Below are positions 3,155 through 9,754 of a stretch of 36,215 bases of DNA, in pieces. The position numbers were made by a program, and so were the translations under genes. The stretch's first letter is position 1. Every line of letters begins with the position of its first letter. The stretch lies in IMG/VR virus record IMGVR_UViG_2579779009_000001, positions 1-36,215 of that record. One strand, given 5' to 3'. This stretch comes from a virus (Duplodnaviria > Heunggongvirae > Uroviricota > Caudoviricetes). The notes below the pieces were generated by a model. It saw only the letters and a program-made list of their open reading frames with translations. It made no database searches and was not told the DNA's origin.

Positions 3155-3516
3155 TATGCTCCAGCCTCCGGTGCTTTTGGCATTACTGCCCAGTGAGTGA
3201 TATTGACGTTTTCAAGGTCCCCGACCTGAAATGTCCACTGCCATTCTCCGGTTTCTTTTTGTCCCCAGGTGTACCAGAGAGAACGCCAGCCAATTAGCCA
3301 GCCTTCTCCGTTAGCATCGAATAACAAAACACTTTCATTTGCTGGTGGCAGTTCAGTTGACACTGGTATTACTTTGTTTTCCTGTGCTGCACATTTAGCT
3401 TCAAGCGCATCGAATTTACGCACCAGGTATTCAGCATCTGTTTCATTTACTTTCAGATCTCGCGGTACACATCTCCCACGAAGAAACCCTTCCATTTCGA
3501 AAACATTCATGCGCAT
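3154..3516 (-). CDS. Hypothetical Trp-rich phage protein (YfdS-like by position, 120 aa)
   Basis: ORF in the leftward operon, overlapping the stop of the upstream gene; Trp-rich C-terminal half (GWLIGWRSLWYTWGQKETGEWQW). Confidence 0.55.
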   Translation of the reverse strand: MRMNVFEMEGFLRGRCVPRDLKVNETDAEYLVRKFDALEAKCAAQENKVIPVSTELPPANESVLLFDANGEGWLIGWRSLWYTWGQKETGEWQWTFQVGDLENVNITHWAVMPKAPEAGA

Positions 3517-5060: not shown

Positions 5061-5423
5061 TTAATGACCTGCTGCGCGGAGTTTTCCGTCAGGTTCACCG
5101 GCAAGAGTCAGTAATTGTCCCTGGTCTTCCTGCAGAATAGTCAGGCGACCACCGCGATTGACATACATCGGCGTTTCGGTAGTGTCTTCTTCGGAAATTT
5201 TCCCGCGGTTAGTTGGGCGAACATATGAGAGTTTGTGTTTGATTTTCACACGGTTCTCATCAAATGGTTCAATTTCTAGGTTGAGCGAGACCTTACCTTT
5301 GGTTTTCGTGTTCATCACACCGGAAGCGACTTCACTGAGAACTGCGCCGATTTTGGTTTCAAATACGCCGCCGTCCAGCTCCCCGATAAATGCCTGCACA
5401 TCAGTACTGCGTTCGCTAGCCAT
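5061..5423 (-). CDS. Hypothetical early-left phage protein (YfdP-like by position, 120 aa)
   Basis: Start at internal ATG (MASERSTDVQAF...) with AGGAGC RBS; the upstream 106 codons of the track ORF are R/P/C-rich and lie in a structured non-coding region. Confidence 0.65.
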   Translation of the reverse strand: MASERSTDVQAFIGELDGGVFETKIGAVLSEVASGVMNTKTKGKVSLNLEIEPFDENRVKIKHKLSYVRPTNRGKISEEDTTETPMYVNRGGRLTILQEDQGQLLTLAGEPDGKLRAAGH

Positions 5424-5471
5424 TTTGCTGCTCCTCATCATATCGACCCTGCAAGGCCGATTAGTTTCTCC

Positions 5472-5560
5472 ACAAAACAGAGAAGAACACCTGCGGTGGC
5501 AGCCGCCCGGATGGATTGGGTTATGAGCCCGTCGTCCGGTGATGCTCTTCTCTGTTTTGT
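5472..5560. repeat. Long inverted repeat (15-bp perfect arms ACAAAACAGAGAAGA / TCTTCTCTGTTTTGT, ~55-nt GC-rich loop) inside an ORF-poor structured region (~5430-5760)
   Basis: Arms at 5472-5486 and 5546-5560 read directly; further hairpins downstream, e.g. GCCTGG-cgaaggttgcaca-CCAGGC (~5653-5677); no U-tract follows on either strand. Confidence 0.6.
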
Positions 5561-5860
5561 AAAAAGGACGGTACCAGCCGGAAGCAAGGGTACAAACTGG
5601 TACCGCCAGGACTACACACAGCATAAAGTTGTGGTGCCGGGTGCCTCCCGGTGCCTGGCGAAGGTTGCACACCAGGCGGGTGGGTATCCACAGAAGGTCG
5701 ACTGTCAGCCTCAACCTTAACCCGCGTGCGCTGAGCCGCATTCACCACAACGCTAAGGATTCTCTCTGGTTGAAAATACTTAGCTGTTATGTGCCTGTCT
5801 TTTCACCACTTCAGGCTCGGTGGTATCCTTTTAAGCCCGTATACATAAAAGGAAAATCAA

Positions 5861-6106
5861 ATGACTTTTGATGAAAAAGAACTTGATAATGCAATTAATA
5901 AAATCATCGTAACGTCGCTCTTTTCCTGTCTCAGCGACACTCAGCAGAAACAGTTCTACGAATCGGCTTTCAACATGATCGAGCGTTGTTGTTTCTGCGA
6001 TGCCGACGAGTTACCTGAAAAAATCAGGAAACAGTTGGCTGATGCTCTTCGAGTGCGACTTTCTGACCAATTTTCTGAAATGTGCTCTCCGAATTTGGAC
6101 AAATAG
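5861..6106 (+). CDS. Hypothetical small protein (81 aa), transcribed opposite to the early-left operon
   Basis: AAGGA RBS 7 nt upstream of ATG; protein-like composition (MTFDEKELDNAINKIIV...); 3' end overlaps the convergent minus-strand ORF 6024..6299. Confidence 0.5.
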   Translation: MTFDEKELDNAINKIIVTSLFSCLSDTQQKQFYESAFNMIERCCFCDADELPEKIRKQLADALRVRLSDQFSEMCSPNLDK

Positions 6107-6299
6107 AAAAAGGCCATTTCCATTCAGGGTCTGATGGAAATACTTCAGCCTGTTCCAAAGCACGGCGTAAAGAGAATACAACTCCAGCCATAATCTGATG
6201 TTTCCCATTGGTCCAGCTATCGCCGCTCTGATCTACAGGAGCGGCTATGTCGTATGACCAAACGATTTCACCACTATTGTTTAAAATCTGGACTTTCAT
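6024..6299 (-). CDS. Hypothetical small protein (91 aa), early-left operon
   Basis: ORF directly downstream of the ClpX-ZBD-like gene on the same strand; GGAGG upstream; 3' end overlaps the plus-strand ORF, so the true extent is uncertain. Confidence 0.45.
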   Translation of the reverse strand: MKVQILNNSGEIVWSYDIAAPVDQSGDSWTNGKHQIMAGVVFSLRRALEQAEVFPSDPEWKWPFSICPNSESTFQKIGQKVALEEHQPTVS

Positions 6300-6852: not shown

Positions 6853-7929
6853 TTACTTTGTAAGTTCTAGAACTCGTTGAGCCAGCCCTTTAAATTGTTC
6901 GTTAAAGGCGTCTCTGCTTGATTTCATTGTATTTAAGGCATGCCCAAATTGCCCTGAATCGCGAATTTGCTGATCACTGATGGAGAAAACAGGTGTCGCT
7001 AGTTGTTGGCTTATTGCGATTAATGAGTTGAAATCGGAAATATGCGCAAGATCATAGGCTGATAAATCTCCACTGACTGTTGTTTTGTTAATTGCATGTT
7101 GCACTTTATCTCGTGGAATTATGCAGGTAATTTTTTCTAGATTTGGCACTAAGATCGAATCAACAGCATCACGGATAGCTGCCATCCATTTTTCGAAAGA
7201 TTTTACAGGTGCTCCTTTACGCGGCCTGTATCTCTGCTGAATCATACCTAGAAACTGCGGTGCATTTTTAATTGATTGTGAAGAGTTACCATCATTATTT
7301 TCTTTAAATAATGCTAATTCTTTGTGCCAGCGAGGTATATTTTTTGAGAGAGAGCGAATTGCTTGCCAGCAAAAAAAGTCTGGAGCTACAGGTACGATAA
7401 AATAGTCACTTGACATGAGAACTACTTCATTTAAACCTCCAACATTAGGGCTGAGATCATAAAGAATGTAATCAATATTATTCTTCAAGGCGATTAGCTG
7501 TAATATTTTTGGCAGGTTCCCTGGTATATTTCTTGTAGCAGGAATACCAGCAGCAATTTTTAGAGAAACACTTATCTGTGAATCTAAGTCCGAAACATCT
7601 AAATGTCCGGGAAGAAGCAGAAGGTTTTCATGCAGTGTAGGGTGTAATTTTCCCGTTTCTTTTTCAAGGTATGCTTCAGGTTGTCCGCCATTAATCAAAT
7701 ATTCTACAATAGGTCCAAGAGTTAAGTTATCTCTGCTAGAATAAAAAGAATCTAAACCCTCATCAATCTTTTCATAGCCAAGAACCATTCCTGTTAGATT
7801 ACATTGCGAATCAAGGTCAACCATCAATACTTTCTTGCCTTCATCCGCAAGTGCCCATCCAAGATTGAAGGTTGTTGTGGTTTTACTTACCCCACCTTTA
7901 TGATTAAAAAAACAAATTGATTTTGTCAT
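6853..7929 (-). CDS. ParA/MinD-family P-loop ATPase (358 aa) with extended C-terminal region; lone gene between OL and cI
   Basis: Deviant Walker A at residues 10-17 (NHKGGVSKTTTTFNLGWALADEGKKVLMVDLDSQ), Walker B-like YILYDLSP; AAGGA RBS; AT-rich by eye; same strand as and downstream of cI. No adjacent ParB-like gene. Confidence 0.8.
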   Translation of the reverse strand: MTKSICFFNHKGGVSKTTTTFNLGWALADEGKKVLMVDLDSQCNLTGMVLGYEKIDEGLDSFYSSRDNLTLGPIVEYLINGGQPEAYLEKETGKLHPTLHENLLLLPGHLDVSDLDSQISVSLKIAAGIPATRNIPGNLPKILQLIALKNNIDYILYDLSPNVGGLNEVVLMSSDYFIVPVAPDFFCWQAIRSLSKNIPRWHKELALFKENNDGNSSQSIKNAPQFLGMIQQRYRPRKGAPVKSFEKWMAAIRDAVDSILVPNLEKITCIIPRDKVQHAINKTTVSGDLSAYDLAHISDFNSLIAISQQLATPVFSISDQQIRDSGQFGHALNTMKSSRDAFNEQFKGLAQRVLELTK

Positions 7930-8099: not shown

Positions 8100-8804
8100 C
8101 TAAAGCCGGTTGTATTTAATTGATTCGTGTATCAATGCTTTGCCCATAACATAAAGTTGATCTTGGGACTTCTCATCAATGTACCATTTCTCATAGGCTG
8201 GATTATCCGAAAGAACGGCGAGTTTGTTGCCTTGCATTTGTAGACGTTTAACGTGGAACGTCTTACCATAAACGAAAGAGTAAACACCATCAGTTTGGAA
8301 GTTGCGAACAGAAATGTCGACAAACAGTCGATCTCCGGAAACTAGAGTAGGGGACATGCTGTCGCCATTTACAGTCATAACTTTAATATCATCTTGAGAA
8401 CGATTACCGAAAAGAGAACGGGCATGCTCTGTTGTGAACTCAATGGCGTAGAGCACATCAACATAGTCTGAAAGCATATAGGTCCCAGGTCCTGCGCTAA
8501 CGCTAAGATCCAAAACTTCTATCCTGTATACATCGGGTTTTGTTGGATTGGGGATGCTTGCCATTTCCTTACATCCTTCTCTCTCGCCAACACCATATTC
8601 TAAATATGAAGCTGATACCCCCAGAGCCAATGCAAGTTTATTCATGACAGAGGCACGAGGCTTCGCAGCGCCGATTGTGTATCGCCGCGCCATTTCATAT
8701 GTAACGCCCACAAGACTTTTGAGTTGGGTGACAGAAATTCCCTTGTTTGTCATTAGCTCGTTTAGTCTCTTGGCGAAATCTGGATACTTCTGTTCTTCTA
8801 CCAT
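8100..8804 (-). CDS. cI: CI-type prophage repressor (N-terminal HTH + C-terminal S24 LexA-like autopeptidase); start uncertain (8804, 8840 or 8861)
   Basis: HTH region (KRLNELMTNKGISVTQLKSLVGVTYEMARRY), S24-like C-terminus (MTVNGDSMSPTLVSGDRLFVD...KR); divergent from a cro-like gene; the 5' 57 nt of the track ORF contain operator repeats, so the 8804 start (MVEEQ...) is preferred. Confidence 0.85.
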   Translation of the reverse strand: MVEEQKYPDFAKRLNELMTNKGISVTQLKSLVGVTYEMARRYTIGAAKPRASVMNKLALALGVSASYLEYGVGEREGCKEMASIPNPTKPDVYRIEVLDLSVSAGPGTYMLSDYVDVLYAIEFTTEHARSLFGNRSQDDIKVMTVNGDSMSPTLVSGDRLFVDISVRNFQTDGVYSFVYGKTFHVKRLQMQGNKLAVLSDNPAYEKWYIDEKSQDQLYVMGKALIHESIKYNRL

Positions 8805-8842
8805 AGGTAGAAGATTACTCGCATCACATACGCTAGTCATTT

Positions 8843-8878
8843 CTATTTTAAGTAGTTGCATTTTGCTATTTTAAGTAG
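8843..8878. promoter_or_regulatory. OR-like operator repeats (two copies of CTATTTTAAGTAG) in the cI-cro divergent promoter region
   Basis: Direct read: tCTATTTTAAGTAGttgcattttgCTATTTTAAGTAGca; same half-site as the OL palindrome at 6616-6634. Confidence 0.6.
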
Positions 8879-8910: not shown

Positions 8911-9174
8911 ATGTCATCTCAAAACTACACAGAGAAAGCAGTAAAAGCTGCGGGAAAATCTTTATCTGAAGTAGCCCGTCACTTTGGTTTTAAGTCCACT
9001 CAATCCGTCGCTAATTGGGTAATTAACAATCAAGTCCCGTCAGAACGGGTTTTACAACTTTGTGAGTTGGGAAACTGGTCCGTGACCCCTCATGAACTGC
9101 GTCCTGATATTTACCCCAATCCAAATGATGGATTACCTGAGTGCTATTCAAAAGTTAGCGGTTCAGCTGCGTAA
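8911..9174 (+). CDS. cro: Cro-like HTH regulator (87 aa)
   Basis: GGAGGAGAAAGG RBS; divergent from cI; HTH-like segment (KSLSEVARHFGFKSTQSVANWV). Confidence 0.7.
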   Translation: MSSQNYTEKAVKAAGKSLSEVARHFGFKSTQSVANWVINNQVPSERVLQLCELGNWSVTPHELRPDIYPNPNDGLPECYSKVSGSAA

Positions 9175-9202
9175 ACGTAACCACAGAAACGAGGAGTTAA
9201 CC

Positions 9203-9754
9203 GTGGGTAAGCATCACTGGAAAATAGAAAAACAGCCTGAGTGGTACGTGAAAGCTGTCAGAAAAACTATCGCGGCGTTGCCGGGTGGTTACGCTGAAGC
9301 GGCTGACTGGCTGGATGTAACAGAGAACGCATTATTTAACCGCCTTCGTGCCGATGGCGATCAGATTTTCCCGCTGGGATGGGCAATGATTTTGCAACGT
9401 GCTGGTGGAACTCACTTCATTGCTGACGCTGTGGCGCAGTCTGCAAATGGCGTCTTTGTGTCTCTTCCTGACGTCGAGGATGTGGACAACGCCGATATTA
9501 ACCAGCGTCTGCTGGAAGTCATTGAACAGATCGGCAGTTATTCAAAACAGATTCGTTCAGCAATCGAAGACGGTGTAGTGGAACCGCATGAGAAGACAGC
9601 AATTAACGACGAGCTGTATCTCTCAATTTCGAAGCTGCAGGAGCATGCAGCACTGGTCTACAAAATCTTTTGCATTTCAGAAAGTAATGACGCCCGCGAG
9701 TGTGCAGCTCCGGGCGCCGTGGCGTGTCGTGACTGTGGAGAAACTAACGCATGA
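9203..9754 (+). CDS. CII-like phage regulatory protein (CP76-type; GTG start)
   Basis: GAGGAG RBS 6 nt before GTG; position immediately after cro; the track's upstream ATG start would overlap cro and is rejected. Confidence 0.6.

Follow-up and report, generated by a model that had tools for sequence, protein, structure and literature searches.

The DNA examined here, referred to below as the window, is a stretch of 36,215 nucleotides (nt) of Caudoviricetes origin (IMG/VR record IMGVR_UViG_2579779009_000001, positions 1 to 36,215), in which a prophage of the SfV/e14 type is integrated at tRNA-Thr adjoining proA. Directly upstream of the yfdP-like gene (5423-5061, minus strand), in the leftward or early-left operon of this prophage, lies a structured stretch of DNA that encodes a real, conserved, multi-module non-coding RNA of leftward sense. 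The region consists of two separable modules, one comprising a multi-helix domain (S domain), a linker and a terminator-like hairpin (T1), and the other a big hairpin (H) that carries a look-alike of initiator tRNA; a preliminary description, made from the letters of the DNA only, missed both the modular organization and the look-alike. We lean towards a reading in which S domain, linker and T1 are a small RNA (sRNA) and attenuator unit of the DicF type, placed within an operon, and H is a recognition or processing hairpin. The reading is built on the observed fold, its conservation and covariation, its strand, the shape of the terminator, the modular homology with dicF and STnc100, and the lack of a conserved reading frame; from these we infer termination at T1 in vivo, accumulation of a discrete sRNA, processing by RNase E and RNase III, binding of Hfq and the existence of any target.

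Fold and conservation of the RNA modules

A highly structured region had been described at 5430-5760, and structure is indeed present there; its limits need revision, the unit being larger and running from about 5441 to 5853. The structure is strong, as described, and it is also strand-asymmetric, the minus strand folding at -162.6 kcal/mol (z -6.3) against -140.3 kcal/mol (z -2.6) for the plus strand. The perfect inverted repeat of 15 base pairs (bp) is present at 5472-5486/5546-5560 and extends to 25-nt arms with 84% complementarity; 200 shuffles of 5430-5760 gave no perfect stem longer than 11. A second hairpin that had been pointed out, GCCTGG...CCAGGC, was found at 5653-5677. The statement that no hairpin is followed by a U-tract on either strand proved incorrect. 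A minus-strand hairpin at 5607-5567 is followed by C-UUUUU-AC at 5566-5559, and together they have the shape of an intrinsic terminator, which our terminator scan skipped solely because its loop exceeds 8 nt.

Read 5' to 3' on the minus strand, the first module begins with the S domain (5628-5751), which is closed by GUUGUGGUG/CACCACAAC and has inner hairpins that include CCGGG-AGGCA-CCCGG and the GCCUGG...CCAGGC hairpin mentioned above. The linker UUUAUGCUGUGUGUAGUCCU (5608-5627), predicted to be single-stranded in the consensus fold, leads to T1 (5561-5607), with its stem at 5607-5595/5579-5567 followed by C-UUUUU (U tract 5561-5565). In a permissive scan of 651 nt, minus-strand positions 5781-5559 matched Rfam family RF02076, STnc100, over the full model (1-206) at 43.1 bits (E 5.4e-8), and the architecture of that family is recognizable throughout: the UGGUGAAU start, the long-range closing helix, the CCGGG-AGGCA-CCCGG hairpin, and the 3' terminator hairpin with its U-tract. 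S homologues of ST64B, phiES15, SJ46 and e14 match STnc100 at 29-42 bits. Among related phages the domain preceding the terminator belongs to at least six sequence classes, all closed by GUUGUGG...CCACAAC; all six continue with a terminator hairpin, variable in sequence, and its U-tract, and the linker core UGCUGUGUGUAGUC is kept across classes. Terminator hairpins of five unrelated sequences were found at the same place, each followed by U5-7. The consensus fold of S domain and T1, from a nine-sequence alignment, has 36 pairs with 93.8% of cells paired and 16 compensatory pairs, compared with 1-4 compensatory pairs in slid controls, and the observed values were reached by none of 500 shuffles. 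All seven T1 pairs of the consensus covary. T1 of the window, with 13 pairs, folds at -20.5 kcal/mol (z -4.0), and its variants in relatives at -13 to -33 kcal/mol. S+T1 is a divergent member of the STnc100/DicF-precursor kind.

The H module (5472-5560) has a P1 stem of 19-20 bp (5560-5541/5491-5472), a P2 stem, an apical stem-loop GGG-CUCAUAA-CCC (5530-5518) and a variable P3, and folds at -45.5 kcal/mol (z -7.3). Over 33 distinct sequences, the fold made up of P1, P2, apical stem and P3 is 95.6% paired and has 10 compensatory pairs (54 cells), against 0-4 in slid controls; the observed pairing, compensatory counts and covariation score were reached in 0 of 500 shuffles, and the count of further pair types in 21 of 500. 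A covariance model built from the 33-sequence alignment found a single copy in the window, scoring 104 bits on the minus strand and 39 on the plus strand, and the invariant U.G and frequent G.U pairs fit a minus-strand RNA only. Amid these covarying stems lies a 30-nt core that hardly varies over at least 15 genera: the pattern CACCNGG..GACGGGCUCAU(A/U)A(C/U)CCAAUCCA(U/C)C is nearly constant, and P1, P2 and P3 vary. No Rfam family matched H, even at E up to 10, and as far as sequence and fold can tell H is an undescribed RNA motif. Near-invariance of a 30-nt core with no Rfam match is of interest in itself, such conservation usually meaning a specific partner; the invariant tip is probably a recognition surface for one, and H as a whole is probably a processing or recognition element.

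The core scan found the H core in more than 120 viral contigs. Scanning one genome per species gave 33 matches to a 19-nt core, 24 of them in Enterobacterales and at least 15 genera; the nine outside that order were set aside as chance matches, there being no hairpin around them. A terminator U-tract stands immediately before H in 21 of the 24 Enterobacterales copies (exceptions: L143, the type B copy L161, described below, and L167), and nearly all early-left copies begin 2 nt after the U-tract. The region draws on modules that temperate phages of enterobacteria have in common, and it also comes apart in nature, 5425-5608 (big hairpin and terminator hairpin) occurring in many phages that lack the window type of 5609-5800.

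Among the roles offered in the preliminary description, that of a structured non-coding RNA has gained support from conservation, compensatory changes, the leftward-strand score of the H model and near-threshold matches to prophage sRNAs. An RNA element that controls processing or termination of the leftward transcript is also supported, and a protein-binding DNA site is disfavoured by the G.U pairs and the strand asymmetry. Folding, covariation, homologue and Rfam analyses found both conservation and covariation, and did not bear out a decayed coding sequence.

The closest parallel is the dicF locus of the Qin prophage. The Qin ydfC-dicB spacer (L170, 1290-1727) holds a long-stem module, then an S domain, DicF, a second STnc100-like domain and finally the dicB start codon. 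Compared by eye, its S domain is almost the same as the S domain of L011 type found ahead of T1 and H in mEp460-like contigs; the true DicF, which scores 76.7 bits, occupies the linker-plus-terminator position, and the second STnc100-like domain (38.8 bits, E 3e-6) fills the dicF-dicB spacer. The window has the same layout, with a unit inside a prophage early operon, an S-type domain before it and an intrinsic terminator at its end. T1 matched the DicF model (Rfam RF00039) at 15.7 bits in the window and at 28.5 bits in the K-12 e14 copy, and its 5' arm GGCGGUACCAGUUU resembles the DicF terminator. Because the Qin locus is built alike, we regard S domain, linker and T1 of the window as a homologue of the DicF precursor with another single strand, UGCUGUGUGUAGUC. 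STnc100-type domains are in this way tied to the DicF precursor, and may represent one kit with which temperate phages place sRNAs and terminators in early and late operons, in which exchange of the short single-stranded 'seed' alone would offer a simple route to new regulators.

On this reading, the RNA would be transcribed leftward with the early-left operon, from the side of the CI-type repressor gene towards yfdP...xis-int. Transcription stopping at T1 would release a structured RNA of about 200 nt or more, of the STnc100/EcOnc27 kind; according to the Tree 2014 supplement, canonical STnc100 (EcOnc27) is a 235/247-nt RNA on northern blots, and its 247-nt form is destabilised without Hfq. 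The 3' part, with UGCUGUGUGUAGUC as single strand, the terminator hairpin and a U tail, would have the layout of an Hfq-type sRNA and, by analogy with DicF, trimming on its 5' side could produce a short sRNA with its own target specificity. As read-through of T1 would be needed for expression of yfdP-int, T1 would also gate the operon. Read-through RNA would fold H, whose 20-bp stem is a potential duplex of the RNase III type, and a cut in that stem would part the sRNA from the mRNA of yfdP, just as the transcript is cut downstream of DicF. DicF itself is made as a 53-nt form by early termination and RNase E, and as a 72-nt form by a downstream RNase III cut (PMC9438474); our own reading would place the latter cut within the 15-bp helix that closes the second Qin domain.

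Several results weigh against this proposal. The STnc100 score of 43.1 bits is below the 47-bit gathering cut-off, a whole-window scan at gathering thresholds gave no match, and the DicF score of 15.7 bits is well short of the 48-bit Rfam cut-off. The target-pairing sequence of DicF, UUUCUGGUGACGU, does not occur in the window, UGCUGUGUGUAGUC being found in its place, and a search of the window for targets of the linker returned five matches at up to three mismatches where 2.5 were expected, which is chance. The loop of T1 is long, at 15-19 nt, which may weaken termination. A scan of the minus strand near 5785-5860 found no convincing sigma-70 promoter by the unit, and a simple RNase III site would not account for the invariance of the H tip. 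For the locus as such we found no expression, 3'-end, Hfq or RNase data: the supplements listing K-12 RNase III targets (PMC5371410) do not mention ymfH or xisE, two gene names of relevance here, and the element is absent from Sp1 of O157 Sakai, which was checked with a view to Hfq-CRAC data.

Transcription, tRNA likeness and reading frame as alternatives

With no convincing local promoter, we infer from the operon layout that transcription of the leftward operon produces the RNA. A promoter suggested by eye, AAGACA-17-TATTTT, was rejected, matching at 8/12 positions and not being conserved, and a plus-strand terminator at 5805-5824 was likewise discarded, its T-run being absent from the K-12 e14 copy. 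In ST64B, phiNP, LLS and mEp460, 630-990 nt without any minus-strand open reading frame (ORF) separate the repressor gene from yfdP; two small hypothetical coding sequences are annotated on the plus strand of this stretch in mEp460. Inspected by eye, the stretch holds a repressor terminator, operator-like inverted repeats and promoter-like sequence, and then terminators and structured modules. In the window, the repressor and the cassette are separated by additional genes. A hairpin, hpB (5805-5824, minus strand; ACCACCGAGCCUGAAGUGGU, then GAAAAGACAGGC), marks the edge of the conserved cassette on its 5' side, and the form CCACC-N-GCCUGA-N-GUGG followed by AAAAGCAGGC is conserved at this edge in the window, LLS, L007 and phiES15. 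As read by eye in phage LLS, hpB immediately follows a PL-like promoter and precedes the first terminator of the leader; hpB is a candidate for a site of the nut or put kind.

It is possible, if rather unlikely, that the leader acts purely in cis, in the manner of HK022 put RNA or of nut sites, such that RNA polymerase reads through T1 and later terminators and no trans-acting sRNA is involved. At least two intrinsic terminators lie between the promoter-like region after cI and yfdP in LLS and ST64B, and no N-like gene is annotated in the regions fetched for relatives; because of this combination some antitermination device seems to be needed. The place of hpB in LLS fits such a device, as does the occurrence of the same kinds of modules after the first terminator of late operons. 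Against it stand the lack of sequence similarity to HK022 putL and the existence of S domains with a terminator both as free-standing sRNA genes (EcOnc27) and as the DicF precursor; moreover, H cannot rescue T1 because it lies downstream of it. Identity with HK022 put was itself rejected, short-word blastn of the PL-nun region against five phage leaders and the window returning only chance matches of 12-14 nt.

The tip of H bears on a different explanation. Its apex CGGGCUCAUAACCC (5531-5518, minus strand) is identical to nt 28-41 of E. coli initiator tRNA, including three G-C pairs and the loop CUCAUAA; the initiator tRNA sequence was confirmed against 5426 E. coli genomes, the tRNA-Met gene being present four times per genome. 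We think it improbable that H is a mimic of the initiator-tRNA anticodon arm, serving as decoy or translational operator while the rest of the region merely delivers it. H would then be a new phage RNA class presenting a copy of that arm, either as a decoy for a VapC-type anticodon nuclease (or another tRNA-fMet factor) or as an operator for the 30S P site, IF3 or MetRS at the first start codon of the operon, and the K-12 'gene' ymfH would be an RNA that bears H. It speaks for such a mimic that enterobacterial VapC toxins cleave initiator tRNA (PMC5175351). The near-invariance of the core amid covarying stems also suits a mimic. On the other hand, the 14-nt match was noticed post hoc and has, by our own estimate, a chance expectation of about 2% in the window, and the loop is UUAAUAA in the K-12 e14 copy and CUCAUUA in the ST64B and Klebsiella copies. 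Neither ARAGORN nor the Rfam tRNA model sees a tRNA at the H region, on which ground identity with a tRNA gene or pseudogene was rejected, and none was called at the motif in 33 genome loci. If the partner of H did prove to be initiator-tRNA machinery or an anticodon nuclease, H would represent a new form of phage counter-defence or translational control.

A short-stem version of the motif, type B, also favours the tRNA-mimic explanation. Lambdoid phages of the Klebsiella type carry it in their late region, immediately downstream of a tRNA-Arg or tRNA-Asn gene, and it scores 35-43 bits with the H model (L004 2473-2548, L005 2473-2548 and about 15 further IMG/VR loci, such as L015, L017, L032 and L096). 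Its acceptor-like stem of 6 bp, GGCCUG/CAGGCC, leads in most copies to (A/G)CCA; type B lacks D and T arms and looks like a processed tRNA-like small RNA. The Klebsiella 'tRNA-Arg/Asn' annotations beneath some blast matches were dismissed as an identification, as they share only 2 nt with the match, which lies just beyond the 3' end of the tRNA. We also considered whether the CAU loop pairs with the downstream start codon; this is indistinguishable from chance, since CAU can pair with every AUG and the pairing extends only a little further.

We give very little credence to the possibility that the region is a gene, whether functional or decayed. RefSeq does annotate one: 'protein YmfH' (ymfH, 103 amino acids, GTG start) on the e14 homologue of K-12, and a 'frameshifted hypothetical protein' (a PGAP pseudogene) on the identical copy in ACN002; in addition, a ymfH overexpression clone has been reported as a trigger of the RcaT toxin of retron-Sen2 (bioRxiv 10.1101/2020.06.22.160242). 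The preliminary description saw no convincing coding frame, and we agree, the sole long ORF being an in-frame N-terminal extension of yfdP. Stops interrupt the ymfH frame in the window, SfV and ST64B, and in the first two a 1-nt indel does so as well. All three codon positions have taken similar numbers of substitutions (9/12/11, 20/25/24 and 22/24/26 in homologue comparisons), and with the frame broken as well there is no conserved YmfH ORF. The changes that do occur are compensatory for RNA helices, the translation here is rich in R, P, G and C, and the ORF spans a terminator. What is called ymfH in K-12 is no conserved ORF; it is the RNA region formed by S domain, T1 and H. About half of complete E. 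coli genomes, K-12 among them, consequently carry a structured RNA that is labelled protein or pseudogene, a misannotation that affects how ymfH results from the y-ome and from overexpression screens are read; if ymfH is an RNA region, the trigger of retron-Sen2 may be RNA. We found no RNA-level description of ymfH, xisE or yfdP in the literature.

A function at the level of DNA (cruciform, protein-binding inverted repeat, or miniature transposable element with 15-bp terminal inverted repeats) would accord with the perfect repeat and with the presence of up to five copies per E. coli genome, and is nevertheless hardly credible given U.G and G.U pairs that exist on the minus-strand RNA only, the gap of 104 to 39 bits between strands, stems that covary and are not conserved as sequence, an unvarying place immediately behind a terminator and ahead of the first gene, the lack (by eye) of a target-site duplication and the single copy in each prophage region examined.

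Flanking elements, neighbouring genes and distribution

Upstream of the cassette, all on the minus strand, the inverted-repeat search found the hairpin hpA (5826-5853; CCUUUUA...UAAAAGG), in place of which K-12 e14, L008, L014 and phiES15 have hairpins of other sequence. The hairpin hpC (5752-5784; GCUAAGUAUUUUC...GAAUCCUUAGC), seen both as an inverted repeat and in the minimum-free-energy fold, abuts the S domain and has equivalents of different sequence in ST64B and phiES15. Downstream of H, positions 5444-5471 contain the conserved single strand GGAGAAACUAAU and a small hairpin, h (5459-5444, loop UUGCAG), where relatives have a hairpin that differs in sequence; the recombination breakpoints at which other downstream genes are joined lie immediately behind GGAGAAAC(U/C)AA. 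The loop UUGCAG, or GUGGCAG, recurs in hairpin h (window 5449-5454) and in the P3 loops of H of several genera (L140, L157, L138). The leader ends at 5421-5436, with a Shine-Dalgarno sequence GAGGAG (5436-5431) and the AUG of the yfdP-like gene (5423-5421).

A further leader module, closed by ACAACGAUGAGAGCAU...GUGCUCUCUUCGUUGU, occurs in Kp4866-6, phiNP and mEp460-like phages (L127 about 3350-3500, L128, L101, L118) and includes a pair of hairpins, GUCUGGUUCGAUUCCAGAC and GGUCCGUUCGAUUCGGAC, that resemble canonical T arms. The 3' strand of the module runs into GUUGUGG, with which the following S domain opens, and because of this overlap the module's helix and that of the S domain may be alternatives.

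The first gene served by the leader matches phrog_204 and is named 'protein YfdP' in RefSeq; the minus strand carries int, xis and yfdT-, yfdR-, yfdQ- and yfdP-like genes, with a CI-type repressor gene at 8103-8861 (minus strand) and a CII-like gene at 9092-9751 (plus strand). The thrW tRNA (1369-1444) is the only tRNA called in the window by ARAGORN and the Rfam tRNA model. Two ORFs overlap on opposite strands at 5861-6106 (plus) and 6024-6299 (minus), both with PHROG matches (phrog_3311 and phrog_3195); they cannot easily both be real genes, and ymfI has the same divergent position in K-12 e14. Between the early-left genes and the repressor the window has a gene for a ParA-like ATPase (phrog_164; 6853-7929, minus strand), which SfV lacks, as does the ACN002 prophage, the latter being otherwise identical around the structured region. 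To the right of the immunity region in ST64B and mEp460 are genes for the IsrK and C4 antisense RNAs, P22 immI-like (L126 5731-5919, L131 7674-7862); at Rfam gathering thresholds the window has no IsrK or C4 match.

The homologous stretch is present in 2815 of 5426 complete E. coli genomes, and also in phages SfV, SfII, SfIV, mEp460, the Stx2c phages, ST64B (77% identity) and others. The ACN002 prophage copy is 100% identical, and that of K-12 e14 (L002 3502-3813, matching window 5441-5750) is 90.7% identical. An H-like module directly precedes the S domain in Pantoea phage PA-1 and in the P1-like phage SJ46. P1-family phages have this pair of elements between two tRNA genes and tciA (SJ46, L136 2508-2701; P1/P7/D6 matches H156-H164), and P1 itself has a 32-36-nt match to window 5722-5757.

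Comparison with known systems

The system most like the window is DicF in Qin. DicF is an sRNA unit within the early operon of a defective lambdoid prophage, and the window has a putative one in a prophage early operon; both consist of an S-type domain, a single-stranded stretch with an intrinsic terminator, another structured element and then the next gene, which needs read-through. The 5' arm of the terminator is similar in the two, GGCGGUA(U/C)CAGUUU, and processing by RNase E and RNase III is documented for DicF (PMC9438474). They differ in what follows the terminator, a second S domain in Qin and the H hairpin in the window, and in the target-pairing single strand, the linker sitting where the target-pairing 5' part of DicF sits and being unrelated to it (GCUGUGUGUAGUC vs UUUCUGGUGACGU); the targets should therefore differ.

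STnc100, or EcOnc27, belongs to a family reported to be diverse in sequence and related to the PasD sRNAs of lambdoid prophages (bioRxiv 10.64898/2026.05.13.724894). Like it, S+T1 of the window is prophage-borne, and the whole-model architecture is common to both (UGGUGAAU start, closing helix, CCGGGAGGCACCCGG hairpin and 3' terminator). The interior helices of the S domain differ, however, and the usual site of STnc100 is the late region downstream of Q/stx2 (stx2B), whereas the copy in the window is early-left, between repressor-side genes and yfdP.

With HK022 put the window shares a structured RNA in an early-left leader, and relatives without an annotated N-like gene in the regions fetched; the ST64B repressor is annotated as similar to HK022 cI. 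Size and fold are different, and S and H lie on either side of a terminator, far from any promoter upstream, where put follows its promoter directly.

The thrS operator, to which ThrRS binds, is a mimic of a tRNA anticodon arm in an mRNA leader. H resembles it in being a leader stem-loop that copies an anticodon arm shortly upstream of a ribosome-binding site. The likeness is a predicted one, and unlike thrS, H has no gene for a cognate protein nearby, the tRNA copied is the initiator, and the module also stands free after tRNA genes.

Finally, the long perfect duplex that H would form in the leftward transcript near int, as a possible substrate of RNase III, recalls retroregulation by lambda sib as well as the cut downstream of DicF. 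Here too the arrangement is distinct: sib lies downstream of int and acts on the decay of int mRNA, whereas H lies upstream of the first gene of its operon and has a tip that is non-duplex and conserved.

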